From NCBI GenBank assembly GCA_000002435.2, contig CM018793.1: a DNA stretch of 64,000 nt; one strand, written 5' to 3'. Of this stretch, positions 27,521 to 39,867 are shown in pieces (the first letter of the stretch is position 1; each line of letters starts with the position of its first letter). The notes beneath the pieces were generated by a model, which had not been told where the DNA came from, made no database searches, and worked only from the letters and a program-made list of their open reading frames with translations. This stretch comes from Giardia intestinalis. Lineage: Eukaryota. The position numbers and the translations under genes were made by a program.

Positions 27521-28456
27521 ATGCCGCAGCACTTGGTACCCCACACAGGGACAGGAAAGCGCACTACAATAGAGGACTTTGAGATTGGACGCTTTCTTGG
27601 TCGTGGAAAGTATGGCTTGGTTTACCTAGCACGTGAACAGTCCTCCAAGTTGGTGGTTGCCCTTAAAGTGCTGTATAAATCCTACATCAAATCGGAGCGT
27701 GTTGAGGGCCAGGTGCGCAGGGAATTGGATATACATCTTAATGTGAGGCACATAAACATAATTCGCTTGTATACTTGGTTCCAGGACGAGACCCGAGTCT
27801 TTTTGGTCCTCGAAGTGGCTCCGTACGGCGAGCTTTACCAAAGGTTACAGCAGTTCGGGAAGTTTCCTCTACCCGTTGTAAGCAAGATTATTCGAGACGT
27901 GGCACAGGCGATACAGTATCTTCACAGAAAGAACATCTTCCATAGGGACCTTAAGGCAGAAAACATCTTGATTTGCAAGGGGAAAGAGACCAAAGAGCAC
28001 ACAGATGCGCACAATTCAGATGACTCCATTTCTGTGCATGAACACGAGCTAGTCCGAATGGCACACTACACATACAAGATTGCAGACTTTGGATGGTCCG
28101 TGCACCATCCAACCCACGGTGGCCGACGACGCACCCAGTGCGGAACTCTCGACTACCTTCCCCCGGAGGTCATGCTCGGACAATCTTATGATAAGGCTTG
28201 CGATATCTGGTCACTCGGAGCCCTGTGCTATGAGCTCATCTGTGGCACCGCGCCCTTCTACCACGACGAAATCAAGATCACACGACAAAATATAGCCAAC
28301 GTAGAGTATAGCTTTACTAAGGACTTCAGCCCAGCCAGCAAAGATTTCATCCAGCGGATGTTAATTAGAAGCCCAGAGGCCCGGATCTCCATAGAGGATA
28401 TCCTCCGGCATCCATTCCTGAGACAGACAGATCACAGGAGTAAGGTCCCCAAGTAG
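27521..28456 (+). CDS. AURK: Aurora-family Ser/Thr protein kinase
   Basis: GRGKYGLVYLAREQSSKLVVALKVL (Gly-loop/VAIK), HRDLKAENILI, KIADFGWSVH...RRRTQCGTLDYLPPEVM (activation loop typical of Aurora), WSLGALCYELICGTAPF. It contains an insert of about 29 aa between the catalytic loop and DFG. Confidence 0.85.
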   Translation: MPQHLVPHTGTGKRTTIEDFEIGRFLGRGKYGLVYLAREQSSKLVVALKVLYKSYIKSERVEGQVRRELDIHLNVRHINIIRLYTWFQDETRVFLVLEVAPYGELYQRLQQFGKFPLPVVSKIIRDVAQAIQYLHRKNIFHRDLKAENILICKGKETKEHTDAHNSDDSISVHEHELVRMAHYTYKIADFGWSVHHPTHGGRRRTQCGTLDYLPPEVMLGQSYDKACDIWSLGALCYELICGTAPFYHDEIKITRQNIANVEYSFTKDFSPASKDFIQRMLIRSPEARISIEDILRHPFLRQTDHRSKVPK

Positions 28457-29210: not shown

Positions 29211-31418
29211 TCATTCTGCCGGGCGCTGCTCTATGACTATTGTGGTCAGGAACTTCTCCACAGTGTAGTTATATACCCGATATCCTTTGGTCATGAGCTG
29301 AGACGATATAAACGGCATTTTCCCCTTGACAATCCGCCTGGCAACGGACCAATCCAGATTGACTTCGTAAACAAATTCAAAGGTCAGCACGGGATCTAAA
29401 CTGGAGAGGATATCATGAGGCTTTACGGGGTTCTGGGGCTGATATGTCGCTTGTGACACCGGTCTTGTCCAGGTGCTAGAAAATACACTCTGGTCATCAT
29501 CTGCATACGATTGAGATGGTTGGACTAACGGGGCTTCCTGTGCGGACGACTGAGATGATTGTATGGGTGGAAGCATGCTTGGAGGTAGTGATTCATTGAT
29601 AAAGGCCGTCTGTAGAGCCATTAGGCGCGATTTTTTCCACTGTTCATAATTCGCTTGTGCATTCGGCTCCTCATAGCTCTGCTGCCGTTTATCCTCATAC
29701 ATAGATTCATTGCTATTGTCTGTTGTTGGAGGAACAAGACTGTAGGGCATCGCCCCGCCTATGTTCATTGCCATTTGTGTCCACGGAGCGTGTCCTTCCC
29801 CTGCTGCATTTCTGCTGTGATCCACTGTGGCTCCATAAATGCTAATCCCAAGTGAGTCCTGGATACCGGGGTAAGCAGATGCAGATACAGAGGACCCGGG
29901 ACCTGGACGGGGCGCAGTCGAACCGGGCTCAGACGGTTGGATCTGATGTGTGCTCTGCAGCTCTGCAATCCTCGCTAAGAGAAAGGAGACGATGTCACCA
30001 ACAATGGATTTTTCCGATCGCAATACGCATGTGTTCTTTCCAAAAACGGGTGCGTCAACGGGGAAGGGCTTTATGAGAGACATCATGTTGAGACCCATTT
30101 TCACTATGATGGAGGTAGACATTCTGAGAAATGCAGATGGTATGTATGCATCCACCATTCCCCTGAGGCAGAGAATAACGTCCGTGTGATACCAGGCACC
30201 GTCAATCTTAGTCATCGACCACGTGTGCCGCCGGTTGGCAGATTTAGAAGGCAAAGAGATGACGTTGCTATTTCCCAGGGGTCCTGAGACAATTGCAGTT
30301 GCTTCCGTGTCTCTGCCGATCTGTGTTTGGGTGGATGGTTTGAGGACCTGGCTGGCAGACAAGTTGAGATCGGGCTCTGGCTTGATCTCCTCCACAATAG
30401 TTTCAAAATTCTTCTTAGTGCCCTTCTTAGTGGCAACAATCTTCCTGTTTATTATCTCACCGTCCTCAGCAGATACCGCTATCCCTGCAAACGACTCACC
30501 TGAGCCGTTCTCTCCCTTATTGGTCAGATGACCTGTATATCTATGGCCACCAAGACTGTCTGGACGATGGATGGAGCTCAAGGTCATGTTCATATTCGTC
30601 GACCCAGCAAGGATACCTTCACTGTGCTGCTTCTGCACTAGATCGAGTACCATGGCATCTTGCTCTCCGTATATGTGATCGTACTGATGTGTGACATCAT
30701 TCATAACGTTGAACTTGTCTGTTCCGTGGGTGCTGAAAACTGTTCGCGGAGATGCATCCTTCGGGTGGGCAGAAAAGATAGAAACATCGGCTGCTACATC
30801 TCTGACAGAGTAGTCACCGCGAACACATGTTGCCTGTATTCCGATCATGGAGCAAAGGAGCTGATACGCTTTGGCAAAACCTTCACATGAAGATCTGCGC
30901 CTGAGAAAGAACCCCTCGATAGTGAATTGAGACATATCCGTGTCAGAAAGCACCTCGTATCTTCCGTAGCTGAGCAGCCACTCTATAACGACCTGAATCT
31001 TGGCAAGGTCCGTTTCTGTGCGTCCGACCACTTCTTGAGAATGATAGTACGGCTTAAAGTAGAGGTCTATCGTTTCCATGATTTGCTGGGCCCTAGACCT
31101 AACTATCTCTGGGTTGAATGCTGCAAATGTTAGGGTGCACTTGCCTTGGTCTGTGGAAATAGACTCAACAAAGGTGTGGAAGATCTCTGGGTGATCCAGA
31201 AGTACTGCCTGGTTGACTCTGTTTGCAGACTTTCGGCTTCTAGCTGCAGCGTACATGAGACAATCCAAAGATGACGAATAGGATCTATAGCCGTCTAGTA
31301 TAAAGTCATAAAGTTCCTGCTCCTGTTGAGATAAAGTTCCGCGGTAGATACTGGGGGTAGCAATGTTGAAAGCTAGTGACTGATTCTCTTTTATAGCAGT
31401 TGAATTCCCGCAACCCAT
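29211..31418 (-). CDS. Transglutaminase-like (kyphoscoliosis-peptidase-type) cysteine protease superfamily protein with N-terminal myristoylation/palmitoylation motif
   Basis: It starts MGCGNST (Gly2 myristoylation consensus MGxxxS, Cys3). The transglutaminase-like core has a Cys-His-Asp arrangement: ...SCEGFAKAYQLLCSMIGIQATCVRGDY...RRHTWSMTKIDGAWYHTDV. The track ORF begins at an upstream GTG (31430), and the ATG lies 4 codons in, after gtgaaaaaacttATG. Confidence 0.6.
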   Translation of the reverse strand: MGCGNSTAIKENQSLAFNIATPSIYRGTLSQQEQELYDFILDGYRSYSSSLDCLMYAAARSRKSANRVNQAVLLDHPEIFHTFVESISTDQGKCTLTFAAFNPEIVRSRAQQIMETIDLYFKPYYHSQEVVGRTETDLAKIQVVIEWLLSYGRYEVLSDTDMSQFTIEGFFLRRRSSCEGFAKAYQLLCSMIGIQATCVRGDYSVRDVAADVSIFSAHPKDASPRTVFSTHGTDKFNVMNDVTHQYDHIYGEQDAMVLDLVQKQHSEGILAGSTNMNMTLSSIHRPDSLGGHRYTGHLTNKGENGSGESFAGIAVSAEDGEIINRKIVATKKGTKKNFETIVEEIKPEPDLNLSASQVLKPSTQTQIGRDTEATAIVSGPLGNSNVISLPSKSANRRHTWSMTKIDGAWYHTDVILCLRGMVDAYIPSAFLRMSTSIIVKMGLNMMSLIKPFPVDAPVFGKNTCVLRSEKSIVGDIVSFLLARIAELQSTHQIQPSEPGSTAPRPGPGSSVSASAYPGIQDSLGISIYGATVDHSRNAAGEGHAPWTQMAMNIGGAMPYSLVPPTTDNSNESMYEDKRQQSYEEPNAQANYEQWKKSRLMALQTAFINESLPPSMLPPIQSSQSSAQEAPLVQPSQSYADDDQSVFSSTWTRPVSQATYQPQNPVKPHDILSSLDPVLTFEFVYEVNLDWSVARRIVKGKMPFISSQLMTKGYRVYNYTVEKFLTTIVIEQRPAE

Positions 31419-31560
31419 AAGTTTTTTCACCTTTTGTCAGACACAGGCAGTCACGCCTTCCTTGAGATCCCGACTGTCGTACATATCTTTTCATGTACAC
31501 AAATGGAGTAGTAGTAAAGTTAGTCCATGGCGTTTTAAAGATAGTAAAGATAGAGTTCTT

Positions 31561-32832
31561 ATGCAGAAGGACCGGCTGCCCTCATTGGAGCTGTGCCCAG
31601 ATACCCTAGTGGCTGTGGCCAGGGAGCTGACTGAATTTTTAAGCAGTTATGCGTGCACCGGAGCTACTTCTAAATTCTCGACAGCTCTATCTAAGGAGCT
31701 AGAAACACTCATTCGGAAACACTGCCCAGTCTGCCAAGGAACATTAGCGATCGTTTGTGGAGACCACCAGTTGGGCGTGTACCCCAGAGATGAAGTCGTT
31801 GCGTTATTGTTTACACCACCTAATGACAGTGTCCACAGTCCCTTGACAGACGGTGGATTTGAAAATAGTACCCTTCATGACGCGCTACTAGATGCTAAAT
31901 ATACAATAATAGCATATACTACCACCAGCATCTCCTTGGTGACAACCTCAAATGATTTGACACTATTCTATTACGTTGCACTAGTTATAGATCCGGCAGT
32001 TCACTCTTTTTATGACCGGTCAATGAATGCCGCTCTTTCTAAACTGTATATGTCCTCACCCGATGCAATGGCTCTTTACCTTTTTCTATGGAAAATGGGG
32101 CTTCATTCGACAATGAGACAAAATGCTTCATCTTTATCTTCACATCATGGAGAACAACTTTCAAAAACAACTGGCTCAACGTTCGATTCGCTGCTCCTTC
32201 CGGAAGAGCTGCTCTACTTGCGATTGCACTTGCACCTTCTGATTTTCTATTTCATTACAGCTTACTCCAAGAAGCGACTACGCACAGTCATGCCCGACAG
32301 GAGCAAAGGTGCAAGCCTTTTGACTATGCTTATATCTCTTGCCGATCATATAGCAGATCTTCAGCGCGAAACCGCTGTCCGACCGTCCTGTATTGTTACT
32401 GATTGGTCTATTTGCTCACTAATTCAAGGGCCTACGGCCATTAAGCTTGGCGTGCCAGAGACTGGTAGTCTATACTTTGCCAGCTACGGACTCGCTGGGC
32501 TTTTGCCCTTCAACGATAAAGGCGGGCACTTTCTTGTTTTTCTCATGACAATGGACACAGCGATGCTTAAGCTCCTCTCTGTTATGAAGCTCGAGCTGCA
32601 ACCCGATAAGTACTATCTTTCCATATTGATTGGCAACTACCAACTCAGCTCTAAAACAGTTGGACCTGTTCCCTTCTCAAGTCAATCAACTCCCCTAGAT
32701 CTCAGCTTTCGTTTGATGATAGCTAGTAGTGAAACAAGTAGTGTCCCTAACAGTGTCCCTAGCAGTTTACACAGCACCCCTACCCAGAAGCGCACGCTTG
32801 ATACTACAGATACGCATACTCCTCTTCCTTAA
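31561..32832 (+). CDS. Hypothetical protein (423 aa)
   Basis: The track ORF starts with TTG at 31462. The first in-frame ATG (MQKDRLPSLEL) follows the AT-rich gatagtaaagatagagttcttATG. No recognisable domain. Its 3' end overlaps the convergent gene by about 29 nt. Confidence 0.4.
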   Translation: MQKDRLPSLELCPDTLVAVARELTEFLSSYACTGATSKFSTALSKELETLIRKHCPVCQGTLAIVCGDHQLGVYPRDEVVALLFTPPNDSVHSPLTDGGFENSTLHDALLDAKYTIIAYTTTSISLVTTSNDLTLFYYVALVIDPAVHSFYDRSMNAALSKLYMSSPDAMALYLFLWKMGLHSTMRQNASSLSSHHGEQLSKTTGSTFDSLLLPEELLYLRLHLHLLIFYFITAYSKKRLRTVMPDRSKGASLLTMLISLADHIADLQRETAVRPSCIVTDWSICSLIQGPTAIKLGVPETGSLYFASYGLAGLLPFNDKGGHFLVFLMTMDTAMLKLLSVMKLELQPDKYYLSILIGNYQLSSKTVGPVPFSSQSTPLDLSFRLMIASSETSSVPNSVPSSLHSTPTQKRTLDTTDTHTPLP

Positions 32833-34360
32833 ATTCCCACCTGTTCCCTTCAAGAGGCTTGGGCTGGTAGTCTGCGTGGTATGTACTCTCACCATCAAAC
32901 TTTGTGCCATCCCCAACCATAAAGTGCGTTTTTCTTAGGCCAGACCCATCCACAGGAGCACTTGCACAATTATTGAACGCAATGTATTTGGAATTGTACT
33001 CTGTACTACTGAGGAACCTGCCTCCCGCTGCCTCCCTCATTATGTGTGAGTCGCGCAACCCCATGTCTACAGCATCAGTCAGCTTTTGGCCAGCGTACGG
33101 CTTACTTTGAAGTAGCATGTCAGACGTGGTGGTTGTGGTTTGGAGTGGATTGATACCAGACAGCTCCGAAAGGTGTGATCTCCGTAGACGCTGCGCAGCA
33201 TCTGGATCTAGGGATGAACGCGCATCTATACTGGGTACCTTGTTATAGTTATCCATGAACTCTGATGCTCCAGCAAACTTTGCAGTTGTTGGGTTCAAAT
33301 TGATGAAGCCACTTTCCCGCTGTATGCGATTCTTCAGGTCTGATGGCTGATAGTGAGCATTATTCAATTCTTGAGGGTTGTAGGCGACATATTTTGCAGC
33401 AGTTTCAGACAGATTTTTGCCTTCAACTGTTGCAGGATTAAGTACATGCTTCTTTGTATCCTCAGACTCAGGCTTCAACAAACCCGAGGGGACGTGGCCA
33501 GGGTAATTAACGTAGTTTGCCTGGTGCTCAGTTTCCTTGGTCAGCATCTGGGCCTGCATGGGATATGGTAGGTGGGACCTCCGCAGCGCAGTCGGGTCCA
33601 TGTTATCCCACTTATCTCCGCGTACTCCTGCCGTCTGGCTCAGCATGTCTCTAGTTTCTGAAGAGCGAGGTCCACTGGGATCATATCCTTGATCGATGTG
33701 GCTCCTCCGCAGCGCCATATTCACCGGCTTAGCCGCAAGCTCGTCATAGTTTGAGCCAGTAAGATACGGTCTATACTCATCTTGCGTTTCAGAGAACTTC
33801 CCCTTGAATCCTTCGTTGGCTGTTGGAAAGTGGGACCTCTGGAGAGTTGCCGTATCCAGAAGCTGTCTGTTTGGGTCTATTGAGTGCCTGACAAAATCTG
33901 TCTGCTGGATCGACTGTCCTAATGGCACACCGGAGCTCCCAGGTGCGACCTCAAAGTGCGATCTCTGCAGGGCCATGCTTGCAGCAGGAAGGACCGCACC
34001 AGAACCTACTGGGTATGGCTTATAGTCGTGTGTGTAGACAGACTCACCTTCCGGGACATGGCCACCCTGGGTGAGATTTATGTTGTCTGGTTTATGGTGT
34101 AAACTCACGGCAGATTCCTGCACGTCAAACGGCCTCTCGATGAATTCTGCTTGGTGCTCAGATAAACCAAGATTTGAGGTGTGATCACCACTGATGCTAA
34201 AGTGAGATTTCCTAAGATTGGCGCTTGCTGCACCTGGATCAACAGAATTTCCCTGAACACTTCGTGGGACGTATTCATCGTGGTACTCCGAGTTGACTTT
34301 GTGGGGGTAGGATACCAACTTGATGTGCGACCGCTGAAGAAGATGAGTACGGCTTGTCAT
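32804..34360 (-). CDS. Repeat protein with about 9 tandem modules carrying L-[RQ]-[RKD]-[ST]-H-[FIL] and T/S-x-Y-x3-Y motifs (possible microtubule-associated/axonemal protein)
   Basis: The motifs LQRSHIKL, LRKSHFSI, LQRSHFEV, LQRSHFPT, LRRSHIDQ, LRRSHLPY, LRRSHLSE, LRDSHIMR and LRKTHFMV recur every 40-60 aa. Each is followed by Y-rich segments (SEYHDEYVP, SVYTHDYKPYP, TQDEYRPY, ANYVNYP, AKYVAYNP, STYHADYQPKP). Start set at the first in-frame ATG (MTSRTH...) after caaagaattttATG. The track's TTG start would abut OLA1. Confidence 0.5.
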   Translation of the reverse strand: MTSRTHLLQRSHIKLVSYPHKVNSEYHDEYVPRSVQGNSVDPGAASANLRKSHFSISGDHTSNLGLSEHQAEFIERPFDVQESAVSLHHKPDNINLTQGGHVPEGESVYTHDYKPYPVGSGAVLPAASMALQRSHFEVAPGSSGVPLGQSIQQTDFVRHSIDPNRQLLDTATLQRSHFPTANEGFKGKFSETQDEYRPYLTGSNYDELAAKPVNMALRRSHIDQGYDPSGPRSSETRDMLSQTAGVRGDKWDNMDPTALRRSHLPYPMQAQMLTKETEHQANYVNYPGHVPSGLLKPESEDTKKHVLNPATVEGKNLSETAAKYVAYNPQELNNAHYQPSDLKNRIQRESGFINLNPTTAKFAGASEFMDNYNKVPSIDARSSLDPDAAQRLRRSHLSELSGINPLQTTTTTSDMLLQSKPYAGQKLTDAVDMGLRDSHIMREAAGGRFLSSTEYNSKYIAFNNCASAPVDGSGLRKTHFMVGDGTKFDGESTYHADYQPKPLEGNRWEFKEEEYAYL

Positions 34361-34411
34361 AAAATTCTTTGCTTGGTGGGAGCTTAGGATCCAATTTTTT
34401 GAAACTGCCAA

Positions 34412-35632
34412 ATGCCACCCAAAGGGAAGAAGGAGGAGGACGACTCGAAGGTCATCGCCCTTTTGGGCCGCGCCAAGAACTCGCTTTCAATGGGCATTGT
34501 TGGGCTTCCAAATGTGGGAAAGTCTCTCACCTTCTCCACTCTGACAAAGGTCCAGGTACCCAGCGAAAACTATCCCTTCTGCACGATAGACCCCAACCAT
34601 GCGCGTGTTGCTGTACCCGACAAGCGCTTCGAGTGGCTCTGCGGACACTTTAAGCCGAAGTCTGAAGTTTCCACGTTCTTGGACATAACAGACATAGCAG
34701 GTCTTATTAAGGGCGCTTCAGAGGGCAATGGTCTTGGAAATGCGTTCCTATCACACATCAAGGCAGTAGATGGAATTTACCATGTCGTGCGTGTCTTCCC
34801 AGATGAAGATGTGAGCCACGTGGAAGGGGAGATTGACCCCACGCGTGACCTAGAAATCATAACCACCGAACTTACAGCAAAGGACCTTGAGTTTCTTGGA
34901 GCACGCATCACCGATAATGAGCGCAAGATCGAGCGGGGCCTGGATAAAAGTCTCAAGGATGTCCAACCAATATACCTAAAAATAGAGGGACTACTCAAGG
35001 AAAAGAAGGATCTCTTTGCCCAGAGCTGGTCGCCCCGTGAGGTGGAGATTCTCAACGAGCTGCAGTTGCTTAGTTGCAAGCCTGTGGTCTATCTTTTGAA
35101 CATGAGCGAGGCAGACTATAGTAAGAAGAAGAATAAGTTTCTTACCAAGATACAGGAATGGATAACGGCCAGAAACGAAAATGCGCATATAGTTCCATAT
35201 AGCGCCAAGCTAGAGGCGACGCTTTTGGAGCTAGGCTCTGCAGAGGCTAGAGACGCTTACCTCAGCGAGCTCCCCTCAAAGTACAAGCTCCCTGACGGTT
35301 CCGTTGTGGAGTCGGCTCTCGATAAGATCATCAAGACGGGATATAAGGCATTGAACCTCTGTCATTTCTTCACATGTGGTGCAGACGAAGTTAGATGCTG
35401 GACGGTCAGAAAATACACCAAGGCGCCGGATGCAGGTGCGGTCATTCACAGCGACTTCCGCGACTACTTTATATGTGCAGAGGTTTATACTTATAAGGAT
35501 CTCAAGAGGTTAGGGTCCGAAGCAGAGGTCAAGGCAGCCGGGAAGGTCCGCACCGAAGGGAAGAACTACGTTGTTGAAGATGGGGACATAATCTTCTTCA
35601 AGAACAACTCACGTGGCGGTAAAAAGAAATGA
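34412..35632 (+). CDS. OLA1: Obg-like ATPase 1 (OLA1/YchF family)
   Basis: MPPKGKKEEDDSKV...LSMGIVGLPNVGKSLTFSTLTK (P-loop), DIAGLIKGASEGNGLGNAFLSHI, a coiled-coil insert, and the C-terminal TGS domain (...HSDFRDYFICAEVYTYKDL...GKNYVVEDGDIIFFK). Confidence 0.9.
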   Translation: MPPKGKKEEDDSKVIALLGRAKNSLSMGIVGLPNVGKSLTFSTLTKVQVPSENYPFCTIDPNHARVAVPDKRFEWLCGHFKPKSEVSTFLDITDIAGLIKGASEGNGLGNAFLSHIKAVDGIYHVVRVFPDEDVSHVEGEIDPTRDLEIITTELTAKDLEFLGARITDNERKIERGLDKSLKDVQPIYLKIEGLLKEKKDLFAQSWSPREVEILNELQLLSCKPVVYLLNMSEADYSKKKNKFLTKIQEWITARNENAHIVPYSAKLEATLLELGSAEARDAYLSELPSKYKLPDGSVVESALDKIIKTGYKALNLCHFFTCGADEVRCWTVRKYTKAPDAGAVIHSDFRDYFICAEVYTYKDLKRLGSEAEVKAAGKVRTEGKNYVVEDGDIIFFKNNSRGGKKK

Positions 35633-35692: not shown

Positions 35693-37381
35693 TCACTTCC
35701 TATAGAGGTTTATCATCTCGACTATCTCTGGTCGCGTCTCTGGTGGAATAGTAAACCCATTAAGGGATTCGTATTCGTAAGGAAGCAAGATGCGTACTGC
35801 CACTCGTTTGTTCTGGTAGATAGCGTAATGGAGTGCCGTGAGGTTGTGGTGATCTCTCATGTTGGCAAGATGTGGGGCTAGAACACCGATGTCATAGTAC
35901 CTACTGGCGTGGACAGCAGAGATAAGATCGGTGGAAAATACCTTCGCGTCTTCAGGCAGTGAGCCTTCTTTATTCACATCTACAGTGGTGTGCTGCTTAT
36001 CTTGTGTTGAAGTAGTGGGCTTGCTCACAGTGGAACCAGAGAGAGCCGGCCTAGGGCTACTACGACTGGGGCTGGGCCTGGATATGCGTGGCGCTAGCCG
36101 CCCGTGACGAAGCAGGATCTGCTGAAGAGAGTTTCGTGAAATTCCTTCTGAGTCCTCTAAAAGATCTATCAGCTCCATATTGTCGAAGAGCTTGGCATAA
36201 TCTATTGCACGCAGACCCCTATGGTCCACCAAGCCCGCTTCATAAGGAATGAGCGCCTTGCAGGCTTGATAAAGGTTCTGCTCTACGGCATAGATAAGGG
36301 CTGTTTTGCCCTGGAAATCTTGGTTGCTAGTCTCACACTTGATAAGTTCCTGAATAATAGGCTGGTTGTTTGATAGTACTGCATGCATTAGCGCCGTCCG
36401 ACCTACAACGTCCTTCAGACCAACCTCATACTTTAACAGCGTCTGGACGAGCTTTAAATTTCCCTTGTTCACGGCGAACATCAGGGCCGTCATTCCAGCA
36501 GGATCTTGGATCTTCGCCTCGTATTTCCTGAGTATTGCCGCAGCGGACTCATTGCCTATTTCTGCCGCGATCATGAGCGCAGTCTTCCCCTCCCTGTTCA
36601 CGTTTCTGCACAGGATAGAAGAATAGTCAAGCATCTTCTTATAGTTGAAGGTCATGACTGCCCTCATCAAGAGAGTGTTTCCGTTCTCATCTACTTTGGG
36701 ACCACCCTTTACAACATCTGGAGTCGTTGTGATCAGTATGGGAGAAGCGTGTTGGCGCCTTGAGTCATCCCGGTGTGTGAGTCCGTCAAGCACACCCATG
36801 AGGTACGTTATGCAAAAGGTTGGGCCGGCAGCTGTTTCGAGAGAAATTGCCTCGGCTATATCGCCCGCAGGCAGCTTATGACAGTGACGGATGGCGTCCT
36901 GCAGGAGCTCGTAGTCATTCAGCTCAATAGCAAACATTAATATCTTTCTAAACTCCCCATCCTTGCCCTGAGCCAGATCTTTGGATGGATCCATATGCTC
37001 AAAGCACATATGTGCAATGGTGTCCTGCTTGTACTTCAATGCCATAAGGAGTGGAGAAAGACCGGAAGAGGCCTCAACAGAGCCCTCATACGGAAGCAAG
37101 ACTCCTGCAGCATCAATCGAGGACGCGCGGATTGCGTACCCAAGAGCCGTGAACCCCTCAGAGCTGATTTCGCACGCTTCACTAACCAGTGCTTGGACAC
37201 ACGATGCGTGACCTGCATCCGCTGCATGCATCAGCGCAGTCATTCCTCGGGAGTCCACGGCTCGCCGCATGGTCGCTATATGCTGTTTTAGATAGGCGCA
37301 ATCTCCGCGCTGTGCAGCAGAAAACCAGCGGCCAAAGGATTCTTCTGCCGCTTTGCCCTCGTCCTGGTCCATCAGGCTCAT
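35693..37381 (-). CDS. Ankyrin-repeat protein (Giardia 'protein 21.1' type)
   Basis: Repeated GxTALMxAAxxGH modules (GMTALMHAADAGH, GKTALMIAAEIGN, GMTALMFAVNKGN, GRTALMHAVLSNN, GKTALIYAVEQN). ATG start after an A-rich tract. Confidence 0.8.
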   Translation of the reverse strand: MSLMDQDEGKAAEESFGRWFSAAQRGDCAYLKQHIATMRRAVDSRGMTALMHAADAGHASCVQALVSEACEISSEGFTALGYAIRASSIDAAGVLLPYEGSVEASSGLSPLLMALKYKQDTIAHMCFEHMDPSKDLAQGKDGEFRKILMFAIELNDYELLQDAIRHCHKLPAGDIAEAISLETAAGPTFCITYLMGVLDGLTHRDDSRRQHASPILITTTPDVVKGGPKVDENGNTLLMRAVMTFNYKKMLDYSSILCRNVNREGKTALMIAAEIGNESAAAILRKYEAKIQDPAGMTALMFAVNKGNLKLVQTLLKYEVGLKDVVGRTALMHAVLSNNQPIIQELIKCETSNQDFQGKTALIYAVEQNLYQACKALIPYEAGLVDHRGLRAIDYAKLFDNMELIDLLEDSEGISRNSLQQILLRHGRLAPRISRPSPSRSSPRPALSGSTVSKPTTSTQDKQHTTVDVNKEGSLPEDAKVFSTDLISAVHASRYYDIGVLAPHLANMRDHHNLTALHYAIYQNKRVAVRILLPYEYESLNGFTIPPETRPEIVEMINLYRK

Positions 37382-38343: not shown

Positions 38344-39867
38344 ATGGCATGCAACGAACGCGGAGGGTCGCGAGCAGGCAGTTCTAGTCAAGAGGATGCC
38401 TCTTCTGTACCTCACTCCACAAGGGATTCATTCTGGACGCCCCTTATGCGTGCTGCTGCGGAAGGAAATGCTGGGACCGTCCGGATGCTGCTTGAAGCGG
38501 AAGTCCGTACCGGCCGGCGCAATAGACAGGGGATGACGGCCCTCATGCACGCGGCCCAGCGGGGACACGTTGATCCTATTAGGCTGCTTTTTGAGAAGGA
38601 GGGTGGCATCAAAGACAAGAACGGTTGGACCGCGCTTATGCACGCAGCGTACAACAATCACCCTGAGGTGGTTGAAATTCTCGTCCCTCACGATCGTGGG
38701 GAGAAGGACAAGAACGGCCGCACTGCTCTGATGATGGCCGCAGAGAGGGGCCACACAGAGATCGCCTCCTTCTTGGCCCTACACGAGGGGGGCCTGGCCG
38801 ACAGCAGAGGCCGCACGGCCCTGATGATCGCCGCACAGAAGGGGAATCTTGAGATTGTCAGGGCCCTTGTCGAGCACGAGAGGGGCCTGAAGGATAACAA
38901 CGGCTGCACGGCTCTTTCCTGTGCAGCCCGAGCCGGCCACCGCGATGTCGCAATGCTCCTCATGGCACACGAGAAGGACTTTATGGAGTGGACGATGCTC
39001 ATGTGTGCCGCGGCCCTCGGAGACACGGACCTGGCATTCCGGCACCTCGATGAGAAGGGCCAGAGGGACAAGCGGGGCCAGACAGCCCTCATCATCGCCG
39101 CCCAGAATGGAAGGGACGAGGCTGTGGAGCTCCCAATAGGGTACGAGAGCGATGTATCAGGATGGACAGACCTTATCTACTCTGCATACCTCGGGGACAC
39201 GGATGAAGTCAAGGAAAACATTCACGAGAAGGGACGCACTGATATCATTGGGATGTCTGCTCTCATGTGGGCTGCACACCAGGGCCACAAGGAAGTAGTG
39301 GAGTTCCTCCTCGAGCACGAGAGGGGCCTGAAGGACAGAGCTGGGAAAACAGCCCTCATGCATGCTGTTTCTGCATTCAGTGATACTTTCGATGGACGAG
39401 CGGTTCCGACTGATGCGTCAATGGGTACCGGCCGCGGTAGTGTGGTTTCAGAGCGTTATGAGGATCGCCTACAGTGTATCGAGCTACTTGGGGAGCATGA
39501 AGCGCGTATGCGGGATAACAGTAGGAGGACAGCCCTTATGATAGCAGCGGAGTGTGGCCACGGGGGATACGTCAAGAAACTTCTAGATAAGGAGAGGGGC
39601 ATGAGTGATAGTAATGGATGGACTGCCCTCATGAGGGAAGCATCCAATGGCCACACAGAGATAGCAAGGCTCCTGGTGGAGAAGGAGGGGGGCATGAATA
39701 ATGGTAGTGGATGGACAGCACTCATGTTGGCAGCACGGAATGGCCACACAGAGGTGGCGAGGCTCCTACTAGAGAAGGAGAAGGACATGAAGAGTAAGTG
39801 GGGTAATACTGCCCTCAGTATAGTCAAGGGGTATAACCACCCCTCTATCATCTCTCTCCTCTCATAG
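38344..39867 (+). CDS. Ankyrin-repeat protein (protein 21.1 type)
   Basis: More than 12 tandem ankyrin modules (GMTALMHAAQRGH, GWTALMHAAYNNH, GRTALMMAAERGH, GRTALMIAAQKGN ...). ATG follows aggaaaaataaaggATG. Confidence 0.85.
   Translation: MACNERGGSRAGSSSQEDASSVPHSTRDSFWTPLMRAAAEGNAGTVRMLLEAEVRTGRRNRQGMTALMHAAQRGHVDPIRLLFEKEGGIKDKNGWTALMHAAYNNHPEVVEILVPHDRGEKDKNGRTALMMAAERGHTEIASFLALHEGGLADSRGRTALMIAAQKGNLEIVRALVEHERGLKDNNGCTALSCAARAGHRDVAMLLMAHEKDFMEWTMLMCAAALGDTDLAFRHLDEKGQRDKRGQTALIIAAQNGRDEAVELPIGYESDVSGWTDLIYSAYLGDTDEVKENIHEKGRTDIIGMSALMWAAHQGHKEVVEFLLEHERGLKDRAGKTALMHAVSAFSDTFDGRAVPTDASMGTGRGSVVSERYEDRLQCIELLGEHEARMRDNSRRTALMIAAECGHGGYVKKLLDKERGMSDSNGWTALMREASNGHTEIARLLVEKEGGMNNGSGWTALMLAARNGHTEVARLLLEKEKDMKSKWGNTALSIVKGYNHPSIISLLS

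Follow-up and report, generated by a model that had tools for sequence, protein, structure and literature searches.

GL50803_6709, a gene of Giardia intestinalis WB located on the minus strand of a 64,000-nucleotide stretch of contig CM018793.1 (assembly GCA_000002435.2; the whole stretch analyzed is hereafter called the window), codes for a repeat protein that can be compared with filamentous microtubule inner proteins (MIPs) carrying Mn motifs. The Mn motif is a short helix bounded by conserved Thr/Ser and Tyr/Phe residues, with the minimal unit [TS]-[TS]-x4-[YF] (Andersen 2024, PMC10973386), and it binds the interface between α- and β-tubulin near K370. Such motifs have been found in filamentous MIPs running along single protofilaments in doublets, in the singlets of the sperm end-piece and in the cortical microtubules of Toxoplasma. 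In SAXO proteins they recur about every 40 amino acids (aa), or 8 nm, and in Tetrahymena STPG1A a spacer of 8 nm is likewise made of about 40 residues. With its 12 Mn motifs, SAXO1 “could have a 96-nm periodicity”, and Mn-like motifs also number 12 in mouse Saxo1 and in PfSAXO. MDM1/SAXO6 is another disordered protein with Mn motifs and cross-links to α-tubulin K370, and the SNYG motif of PIERCE1/2, FAP182, FAP85, CFAP144 and others was described by Andersen et al. as a divergent Mn unit occupying the same tubulin interface (PMC10973386).

The system closest to the Giardia protein is the Tetrahymena protein deposited as “Nebulin” (Q231B6, TTHERM_00433410), which was listed by Kubo et al. in 2023 as a Tetrahymena-specific MIP and modeled in the doublet microtubule (PDB 8G2Z/8G3D/8SF7, chain 6H). 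Its residues 436 and 449 were cross-linked in situ to α-tubulin K370, and it is reduced in RIB72A/B knock-out cilia according to the proteomics table in the supplement (PMC10105768). No discussion of this protein was found in the main text of that paper or elsewhere in the searchable literature.

As for GL50803_6709 itself, its GFP-tagged product was previously seen on every basal body and every flagellum as well as on the median body and the lateral crest of the ventral disc (PMC4931700), and it appears, with a basal-body/cytoskeleton localization, in a list of proximity partners from a 2024 study. The original prediction for this locus, which was made from the sequence and rightly pointed to a diplomonad flagellate as the host, had proposed tagging as a check on a microtubule-binding role and counted a non-microtubular localization against it; the published pattern is in agreement with the proposal. 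The results reported below make it likely that GL50803_6709 is a disordered filamentous Mn-motif protein of the microtubule lattice belonging to the family of Tetrahymena “Nebulin”, which by homology would be luminal and stabilizing.

Organization of the repeat array

The coding sequence (CDS) extends from the ATG at 34360 to the TAG at 32806-32804 and encodes 518 aa according to the open reading frame (ORF) and its translation, the product being annotated as “hypothetical protein GL50803_006709”. The nine copies of L[RQ][RKD][ST]H[FIL] noticed in the original prediction are real: the pattern matches at aa 8, 49, 131, 173, 217, 259, 392, 435 and 475, against a chance expectation of 0.0008 matches per sequence, and none of 20,000 composition-preserving shuffles contained two or more. 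Successive matches are 41, 82, 42, 44, 42, 133, 43 and 40 residues apart, which amounts to a period of 40–44 residues with two longer gaps (82 and 133) and not to the spacing of 40–60 residues first described. Since these two gaps correspond to two and three periods and hold degenerate units at approximately aa 87, 302 and 342, the array is a complete one of 12 units of about 42 aa, nine strict and three degenerate as found by aligning the intervening segments, and not the nine-fold array initially described. When run on the three Giardia-lineage sequences from which it was built, the hidden Markov model (HMM) of the unit detects 12 domains in each.

The CDS and the units are listed below. The CDS was defined by the ORF and its translation and by 100% identity to XP_001708010.1; units 3, 8 and 9 were delimited by unit alignment and HMM, unit 12 by the pattern and by its fit to the Mn motif, and the remaining units by the pattern together with unit alignment and HMM.

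32804..34360, minus strand: CDS of GL50803_6709, 518 aa plus TAG, 12-unit bipartite-repeat protein
34217..34339, minus strand: unit 1, aa 8-48, LQRSHI ... SEYHDEY-VP
34103..34216, minus strand: unit 2, aa 49-86, LRKSHF ... SEHQAEF
33971..34102, minus strand: unit 3, aa 87-130, first motif degenerate (LHHKPDNI), Mn half intact (ESVYTHDYKPYP)
33845..33970, minus strand: unit 4, aa 131-172, LQRSHF ... SIQQTDF
33713..33844, minus strand: unit 5, aa 173-216, LQRSHF ... SETQDEYRPY
33587..33712, minus strand: unit 6, aa 217-258, LRRSHI ... SETRDML
33458..33586, minus strand: unit 7, aa 259-301, LRRSHL ... TEHQANYVNYP
33338..33457, minus strand: unit 8, aa 302-341, first motif degenerate (TKKHVLNP), Mn half SETAAKYVAY
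33188..33337, minus strand: unit 9, aa 342-391, first motif degenerate (LKNRIQ.../GFINL), Mn half SEFMDNYNKVP
33059..33187, minus strand: unit 10, aa 392-434, LRRSHL ... TTTSDML
32939..33058, minus strand: unit 11, aa 435-474, LRDSHI ... TEYNSKY
32807..32938, minus strand: unit 12, aa 475-518, LRKTHFMVG ... FDGESTYHADYQPKPL, then an acidic tail ending in AYL

Each unit is bipartite and consists of LRxSH[FIL] and, 16–24 residues further on (about 18), of [ST]-[ETVI]-x4-[YFL], usually followed by x-x-P; approximately 24 aa then separate this second motif from the first motif of the next unit. The second motif is present in 12/12 units, its typical form being [ST]-E-x4-[YF]-x-x-P, where Glu often stands in place of the second Ser/Thr of the minimal Mn unit. 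The Tyr/Pro-rich T/S-x-Y-x3-Y segment that had been proposed to follow every first motif occurs in its strict form in only four units and is a special case of this general motif, so a second element does accompany each unit, in a looser form than originally described. The sequence FDGESTYHADYQPKPL of unit 12 agrees with Mn-like “motif 2” as published for SAXO proteins (regular expression of Dacheux 2012), and the same unit aligns weakly with the repeats of Toxoplasma SPM1.

Contrary to what had been supposed, the protein is not especially rich in Gly or Pro (G 6.8%, P 6.6%, with S at 10%), has a pI of 6.18 and contains one Cys in 518 aa, none being N-terminal. AlphaFold2 gives a mean predicted local distance difference test (pLDDT) score of 42 with no residue above 70, by which the protein is predicted to be disordered on its own, as was also suggested initially. 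Model scores of this kind are typical of filamentous MIPs.

Conservation and homologues

The homologues from other Giardia lineages are 85–99% identical to the window protein, and identity falls to 55% for GMRT_12359 from G. muris and to 43% for a Giardia-like sequence. When invariant positions were counted over five Giardia-lineage sequences with 43–88% identity to the window protein, they made up 76% of LRxSHF, 61% of SEx4Y and 20% of the remaining positions (Fisher p = 3e-22). Both motifs are thus far more invariant than the rest of the protein and represent its parts under purifying selection, while the linkers drift.

A profile search with the full-length Giardia alignment against 1.84 billion representative proteins resulted in 18 proteins. 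Full-length orthologues, all annotated as “hypothetical”, exist in Spironucleus salmonicida and Hexamita inflata, and several homologues from uncultured eukaryotes possess very regular dLRxSHFxLG...S/T-x-Y-x3-Y-x-PKP repeats. The word-indexed search with the 42-aa repeat alignment yielded seven candidates and no matches, and with a multi-taxon full-length alignment the search recovered, for the most part, the same Giardia sequences again, plus two fragments.

All 12 units, spaced by 36–44 aa, were detected in two of the homologues, P0015 (484 aa) and P0016 (491 aa). The Spironucleus protein, one Hexamita protein (P0012), P0010 and P0072 contain 10–11 detected units together with gaps of exactly two periods, which makes 12 slots. 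The number of slots is therefore 12 in the full-length homologues of 483–522 aa, save for a second Hexamita paralogue (P0013, 496 aa) with seven detected units and gaps of about three and four periods, in which the count is less clear. The positions of the degenerate units coincide between Giardia, Spironucleus and Hexamita, and the “NLHxxxxNI” form of the first motif of unit 3 is kept in the latter two genera.

In two distant homologues outside the diplomonads, P0010 and P0018, the last Mn motif is immediately followed by PPCP, which is similar to the Cys-Pro of the SAXO MnL* domain and hints, on the level of sequence, at a sister relationship of the family to SAXO and not at convergence. The C-terminal AYL is invariant in the Giardia lineages and is also found in the distant fragment P0020.

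Two side observations concern the homologues. The C-termini of P0020 (...QYAYL) and of the Giardia protein (...EYAYL) form a small signature across very distant members. The 12-unit homologue P0015 comes from compact eukaryotic metagenome contigs (L001-L003) in which every gene was called as one uninterrupted ORF, with kinase and zinc-finger genes nearby.

Profile matches to microtubule inner proteins

The Pfam search found no family for GL50803_6709 at E ≤ 10 and nothing relevant for 10 homologues. The whole protein gave no phmmer match in the PDB, and the full-length profile produced only a non-significant alignment to SPM1 and a chance match to a histone, so only profiles of the repeat unit were informative for PDB searches. 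The first of them, composed of Giardia-lineage units only, was searched against 177,635 distinct PDB sequences, and its matches below E = 0.1 were microtubule inner proteins only. The leading matches of this profile were as follows.

8glv_zj: Chlamydomonas flagellar-associated protein, E 3e-9
8g2z/8g3d/8sf7 chain 6H: Tetrahymena “Nebulin”, E 3e-8, both unit halves aligned
8ou0_D: bovine SAXO1, E 3e-4
CFAP107 and FAP363: E about 0.1

The alignments to “Nebulin” include LRKAHFDLG, LKKSHFKLG and LRAEHFKLGNDPQSYTSEAAAKF. With the family-wide repeat profile, in which there is no sequence known to be from Tetrahymena, “Nebulin” was matched at 6e-50 with 12 domains starting at aa 27, 72, 115, 157, 204, 241, 283, 324, 367, 409, 451 and 490. 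The same profile matched SAXO1 (2e-8), FAP363 (6e-8), Toxoplasma SPM1 (6e-7) and a trypanosome STOP-family protein (STOP/DMIP1, 4e-5), in all four cases over profile positions 10–30 only, which correspond to the Mn half of the unit. The resemblance to the short-linear-motif arrays of SAXO, STOP (Mn modules) and MDM1 that the original prediction had drawn is borne out by these matches and by the identity of the second half of the unit as an Mn motif.

Dozens of α-tubulin chains were also aligned with the Giardia-only profile, at profile positions 16–31 and tubulin residues of about 250–266, with E values of about 0.4–0.7. They are below significance and were treated as chance matches, although their uniformity is curious for a motif that binds tubulin.

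Comparison with Tetrahymena “Nebulin” and proposed position on the microtubule

The Giardia and Tetrahymena proteins are equal in length (518 aa), in the number of units (12) and in the period (about 42 aa). Both are proteins of axonemal microtubules, and in both the unit is bipartite, with LRxSHFxLG followed by a Mn-type S/T-x4-Y/F in “Nebulin”. They differ in that there is little identity outside the motifs and that in the Giardia protein the Gly of the first motif is largely missing and three units are degenerate; the luminal position, the cross-links to K370 and the dependence on RIB72 are known for the Tetrahymena protein only. In terms of sequence, the true family of GL50803_6709 appears to be the unnamed one typified by Q231B6, and the homologues found here contradict the listing of “Nebulin” as Tetrahymena-specific.

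By homology with these relatives, the chain would lie lengthwise along a protofilament on its luminal face. Each 42-aa unit would span one 8-nm tubulin dimer, with the Mn helix placed at the α/β interface and the LRxSH[FIL] element making a second contact with tubulin about half a unit (~4 nm) away, so that one molecule might staple about 12 dimers (~96 nm) and stabilize the lattice. The luminal position in Giardia, the 8 nm per unit and the stabilizing role are all taken over from the relatives in this scheme. The expected sites of action would be the basal bodies, the eight axonemes and the microtubules of the median body, the last being suggested by the published GFP pattern.

Several points weigh against this scheme. 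The choice of the lumen over the outer surface is drawn solely from a homologue that is about 20% identical outside the motifs, and the identification of “Nebulin” in the map was itself among the weaker ones (findMySequence E = 4.5e-6, PMC10105768). Short repeat profiles can inflate summed scores. The Gly of LRxSHFxLG is mostly lost in Giardia, with one of nine units fitting [ST][HN]xx[hydrophobic]G, so the first motif may act differently there. With a pI of 6.2, the protein is acidic, whereas SAXO proteins are basic. Finally, the lateral crest is not known as a microtubule structure, and the GFP pattern is therefore broader than a pure MIP predicts.

The acidic character of the protein and its presence at the lateral crest and median body besides the axonemes would also suit an outer-surface microtubule-associated protein or a non-tubulin scaffold, for example of the lateral crest, whose repeats bind the microtubule exterior or another periodic filament; MAP6-type proteins, moreover, are described as able to act on both faces of the lattice. 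We consider such an arrangement unlikely, as the closest solved relatives (“Nebulin”, SAXO1, SPM1 and FAP363) are all luminal and the cross-links of “Nebulin” lead to the luminal α-tubulin K370.

Relation to SAXO and other described proteins

SAXO1/SAXO2, TbSAXO, SPM1 and FAP363 are disordered filamentous proteins which bind along protofilaments, stabilize microtubules and carry repeated Mn motifs at about 40 aa per 8 nm, to be compared with the Giardia units of about 42 aa. The motif itself, the profile similarity and a spacing of about 40 aa were all found in GL50803_6709, with the correspondence to 8 nm taken from the literature, and judging by these features the protein would be a Mn-motif (MAP6/SAXO-type) protein in the broad sense. 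Compared with SAXO and SPM1, the Giardia protein additionally conserves LRxSHF in every inter-repeat, and its period is longer (42 aa vs. 32 aa in SPM1).

That it is the Giardia orthologue of a canonical SAXO (SAXO1/2, TbSAXO or SPM1) seems quite unlikely to us, despite the Mn-type motifs numbering 12 as in mouse Saxo1 and PfSAXO, the reach of the profiles to SAXO1, SPM1 and FAP363 and the Cys-Pro after the last Mn motif in the non-diplomonad homologues P0010 and P0018. The N-terminal Cys-cluster motif 1 described for SAXO by Dacheux et al. in 2012 is absent, as is the CP motif, the Giardia C-terminus reading ...YQPKPLEGNRWEF... without CP. The pI (6.18) and the Pro content (6.6%) lie outside the values of the basic, Pro-rich SAXO proteins (pI 8.3–9.1, Pro 11–20%), and there is no match to Pfam STOP (PF05217) at E ≤ 10. 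The 42-aa period with the LRxSHF inter-repeat also sets the protein apart, since LRxSHF is lacking in SAXO1 and SPM1, which match profile positions 10–30 only, and Dacheux et al. chose a different Giardia accession as the SAXO representative. Taken on these sequence features, GL50803_6709 does not appear to be a canonical SAXO protein.

A highly improbable alternative is a nebulin-like actin ruler, or an array of PP1-docking or kinase-substrate sites (RRS or RVxF-like) with no relation to tubulin: the PDB name of the Tetrahymena homologue, the superficial likeness of the ~40-aa repeats to the 35-aa nebulin repeats and the resemblance of R-R-S to basophilic kinase sites can be cited for it, but it was rejected given the absence of matches to Pfam Nebulin (PF00880; neither the Giardia protein nor 10 homologues match it, “Nebulin” being the depositor’s label only) and to PPP1R32/DUF4490 (PF14892, PPP1R32/SAXO4) in GL50803_6709, the lack of fit of S-H-F to [RK]x(0,1)[VI]x[FW], the “Nebulin” chain being cross-linked to tubulin in the doublet-microtubule model, and the localization to microtubule organelles. 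The Ser of the motif is moreover replaced by A, H, N or T in many family members while His-Phe is kept, and phosphorylation is therefore not the conserved feature.

The DUF4490 domain is found in a different Giardia gene, GL50803_4624, whose product was localized to basal bodies, the median body and axonemes (PMC4931700). As this protein is also SAXO-like, Giardia has several distinct SAXO-like proteins.

The first motif bears some resemblance to SNYG. Across the family it takes the form [ST]-[HN]-x-x-[hydrophobic]-G, which has the same length and the same end residues as the SNYG motif [ST]-N-x-x-[ILVY]-G, and the relaxed pattern fits 34/66 family units (one of them from Giardia), whereas the strict pattern fits 2/66. 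Unlike in SNYG, His usually replaces Asn, and the preceding L-R-x is conserved in the family of GL50803_6709, so the likeness may be regarded as a lead and as a resemblance only. MDM1/SAXO6 contains only four widely spaced Mn motifs and, unlike the Giardia protein, lacks the LRxSHF element; no direct similarity between it and GL50803_6709 was detected here. The GFG and PYG types of MIP repeats, which were compared by their published description, do not fit.

What the assignment adds

Filamentous Mn-motif microtubule inner or lattice proteins are a well-known kind, and the localization of the product of this gene had already been published. Four points appear to be new: GL50803_6709 and its orthologues in diplomonads are assigned to this kind, they are linked to a MIP that had been regarded as specific to Tetrahymena, LRxSHF(xLG) emerges as a second conserved motif having no database model, and the count of twelve units is invariant. 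The idea of an undescribed repeat class put forward in the original prediction is accordingly true in part: there is nothing new in the Mn half, and the 12-unit bipartite architecture is already present in the cryo-EM model of Tetrahymena “Nebulin”, while neither the LRxSHF(xLG) half nor the family itself had been described, no Pfam model existing for either of them and no discussion being found in the searchable literature.

The assignment would give a mechanistic annotation to a “hypothetical protein” that is known to occur in Giardia on each flagellum as well as on the basal bodies and the median body, and would make it a candidate contributor to the unusually high stability of the microtubule arrays in this organism. 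A MIP regarded as Tetrahymena-specific becomes a member of a family from ciliates, diplomonads and other eukaryotes, and LRxSHFxLG can be flagged as a putative conserved tubulin-lattice motif. The conserved twelve units of about 42 aa, equal in number to the Mn motifs of SAXO1, offer a testable idea of how a 96-nm luminal register might be set. It could even be speculated, though we regard this as rather doubtful, that the 12-unit bipartite proteins (GL50803_6709, Q231B6 and their relatives) constitute an ancient, eukaryote-wide luminal 96-nm “ruler” with LRxSHF and Mn motifs alternating at intra- and inter-dimer interfaces, which Giardia has co-opted onto the median body and the disc margin, adding hyperstability.

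Gene boundaries and neighborhood

The following features surround the gene.

34361..34411, no strand: 51-bp divergent intergenic region common to GL50803_6709 and the YchF/OLA1 GTPase gene (sequence)
34412-35632, plus strand: YchF/OLA1-type GTPase gene, divergent from GL50803_6709 (Pfam MMR_HSR1 and YchF-GTPase_C)
32765..32771, minus strand: TGTAAAC, candidate polyadenylation signal 33–39 nt past the stop codon (6/7 matches to the consensus)
31462-32832, plus strand: convergent ORF, 456 aa by the ORF tool, without a Pfam match
29211-31430, minus strand: 739-aa ORF with a transglutaminase-like core domain (Pfam, E = 1e-6)
27521-28456, plus strand: protein kinase, 311 aa (Pfam)
35693-37381, minus strand: ankyrin-repeat-only protein, 562 aa (Pfam)
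38344-39867, plus strand: ankyrin-repeat-only protein, 507 aa (Pfam)

None of the neighboring genes bears on the function of GL50803_6709. A/T-rich stretches are located directly upstream of both ATGs that flank the 51-bp spacer. As Giardia promoters are generally short, 34361-34411 might have a promoter role. A 535-aa version of the ORF, produced by an ORF tool with the bacterial code, begins with TTG and differs from the annotated start. The orthologue from DHA2 is also annotated with 535 aa (MAVSKNW...) and would run across the whole spacer; this annotation is probably an over-extension.

Downstream of the gene, the candidate polyadenylation signal TGTAAAC was recognized by comparison with the Giardia consensus AGTRAAY. 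The last 29 nt of the convergent ORF 31462-32832 lie within the CDS of GL50803_6709, at its 3′ end (window positions 32804-32832); provided that this ORF is a genuine gene, the two convergent genes share the region of their stop codons. The two ankyrin-repeat-only genes are located close together, and it is in the interval of 38–40 kb that the GC content of the window reaches its maximum (0.555).

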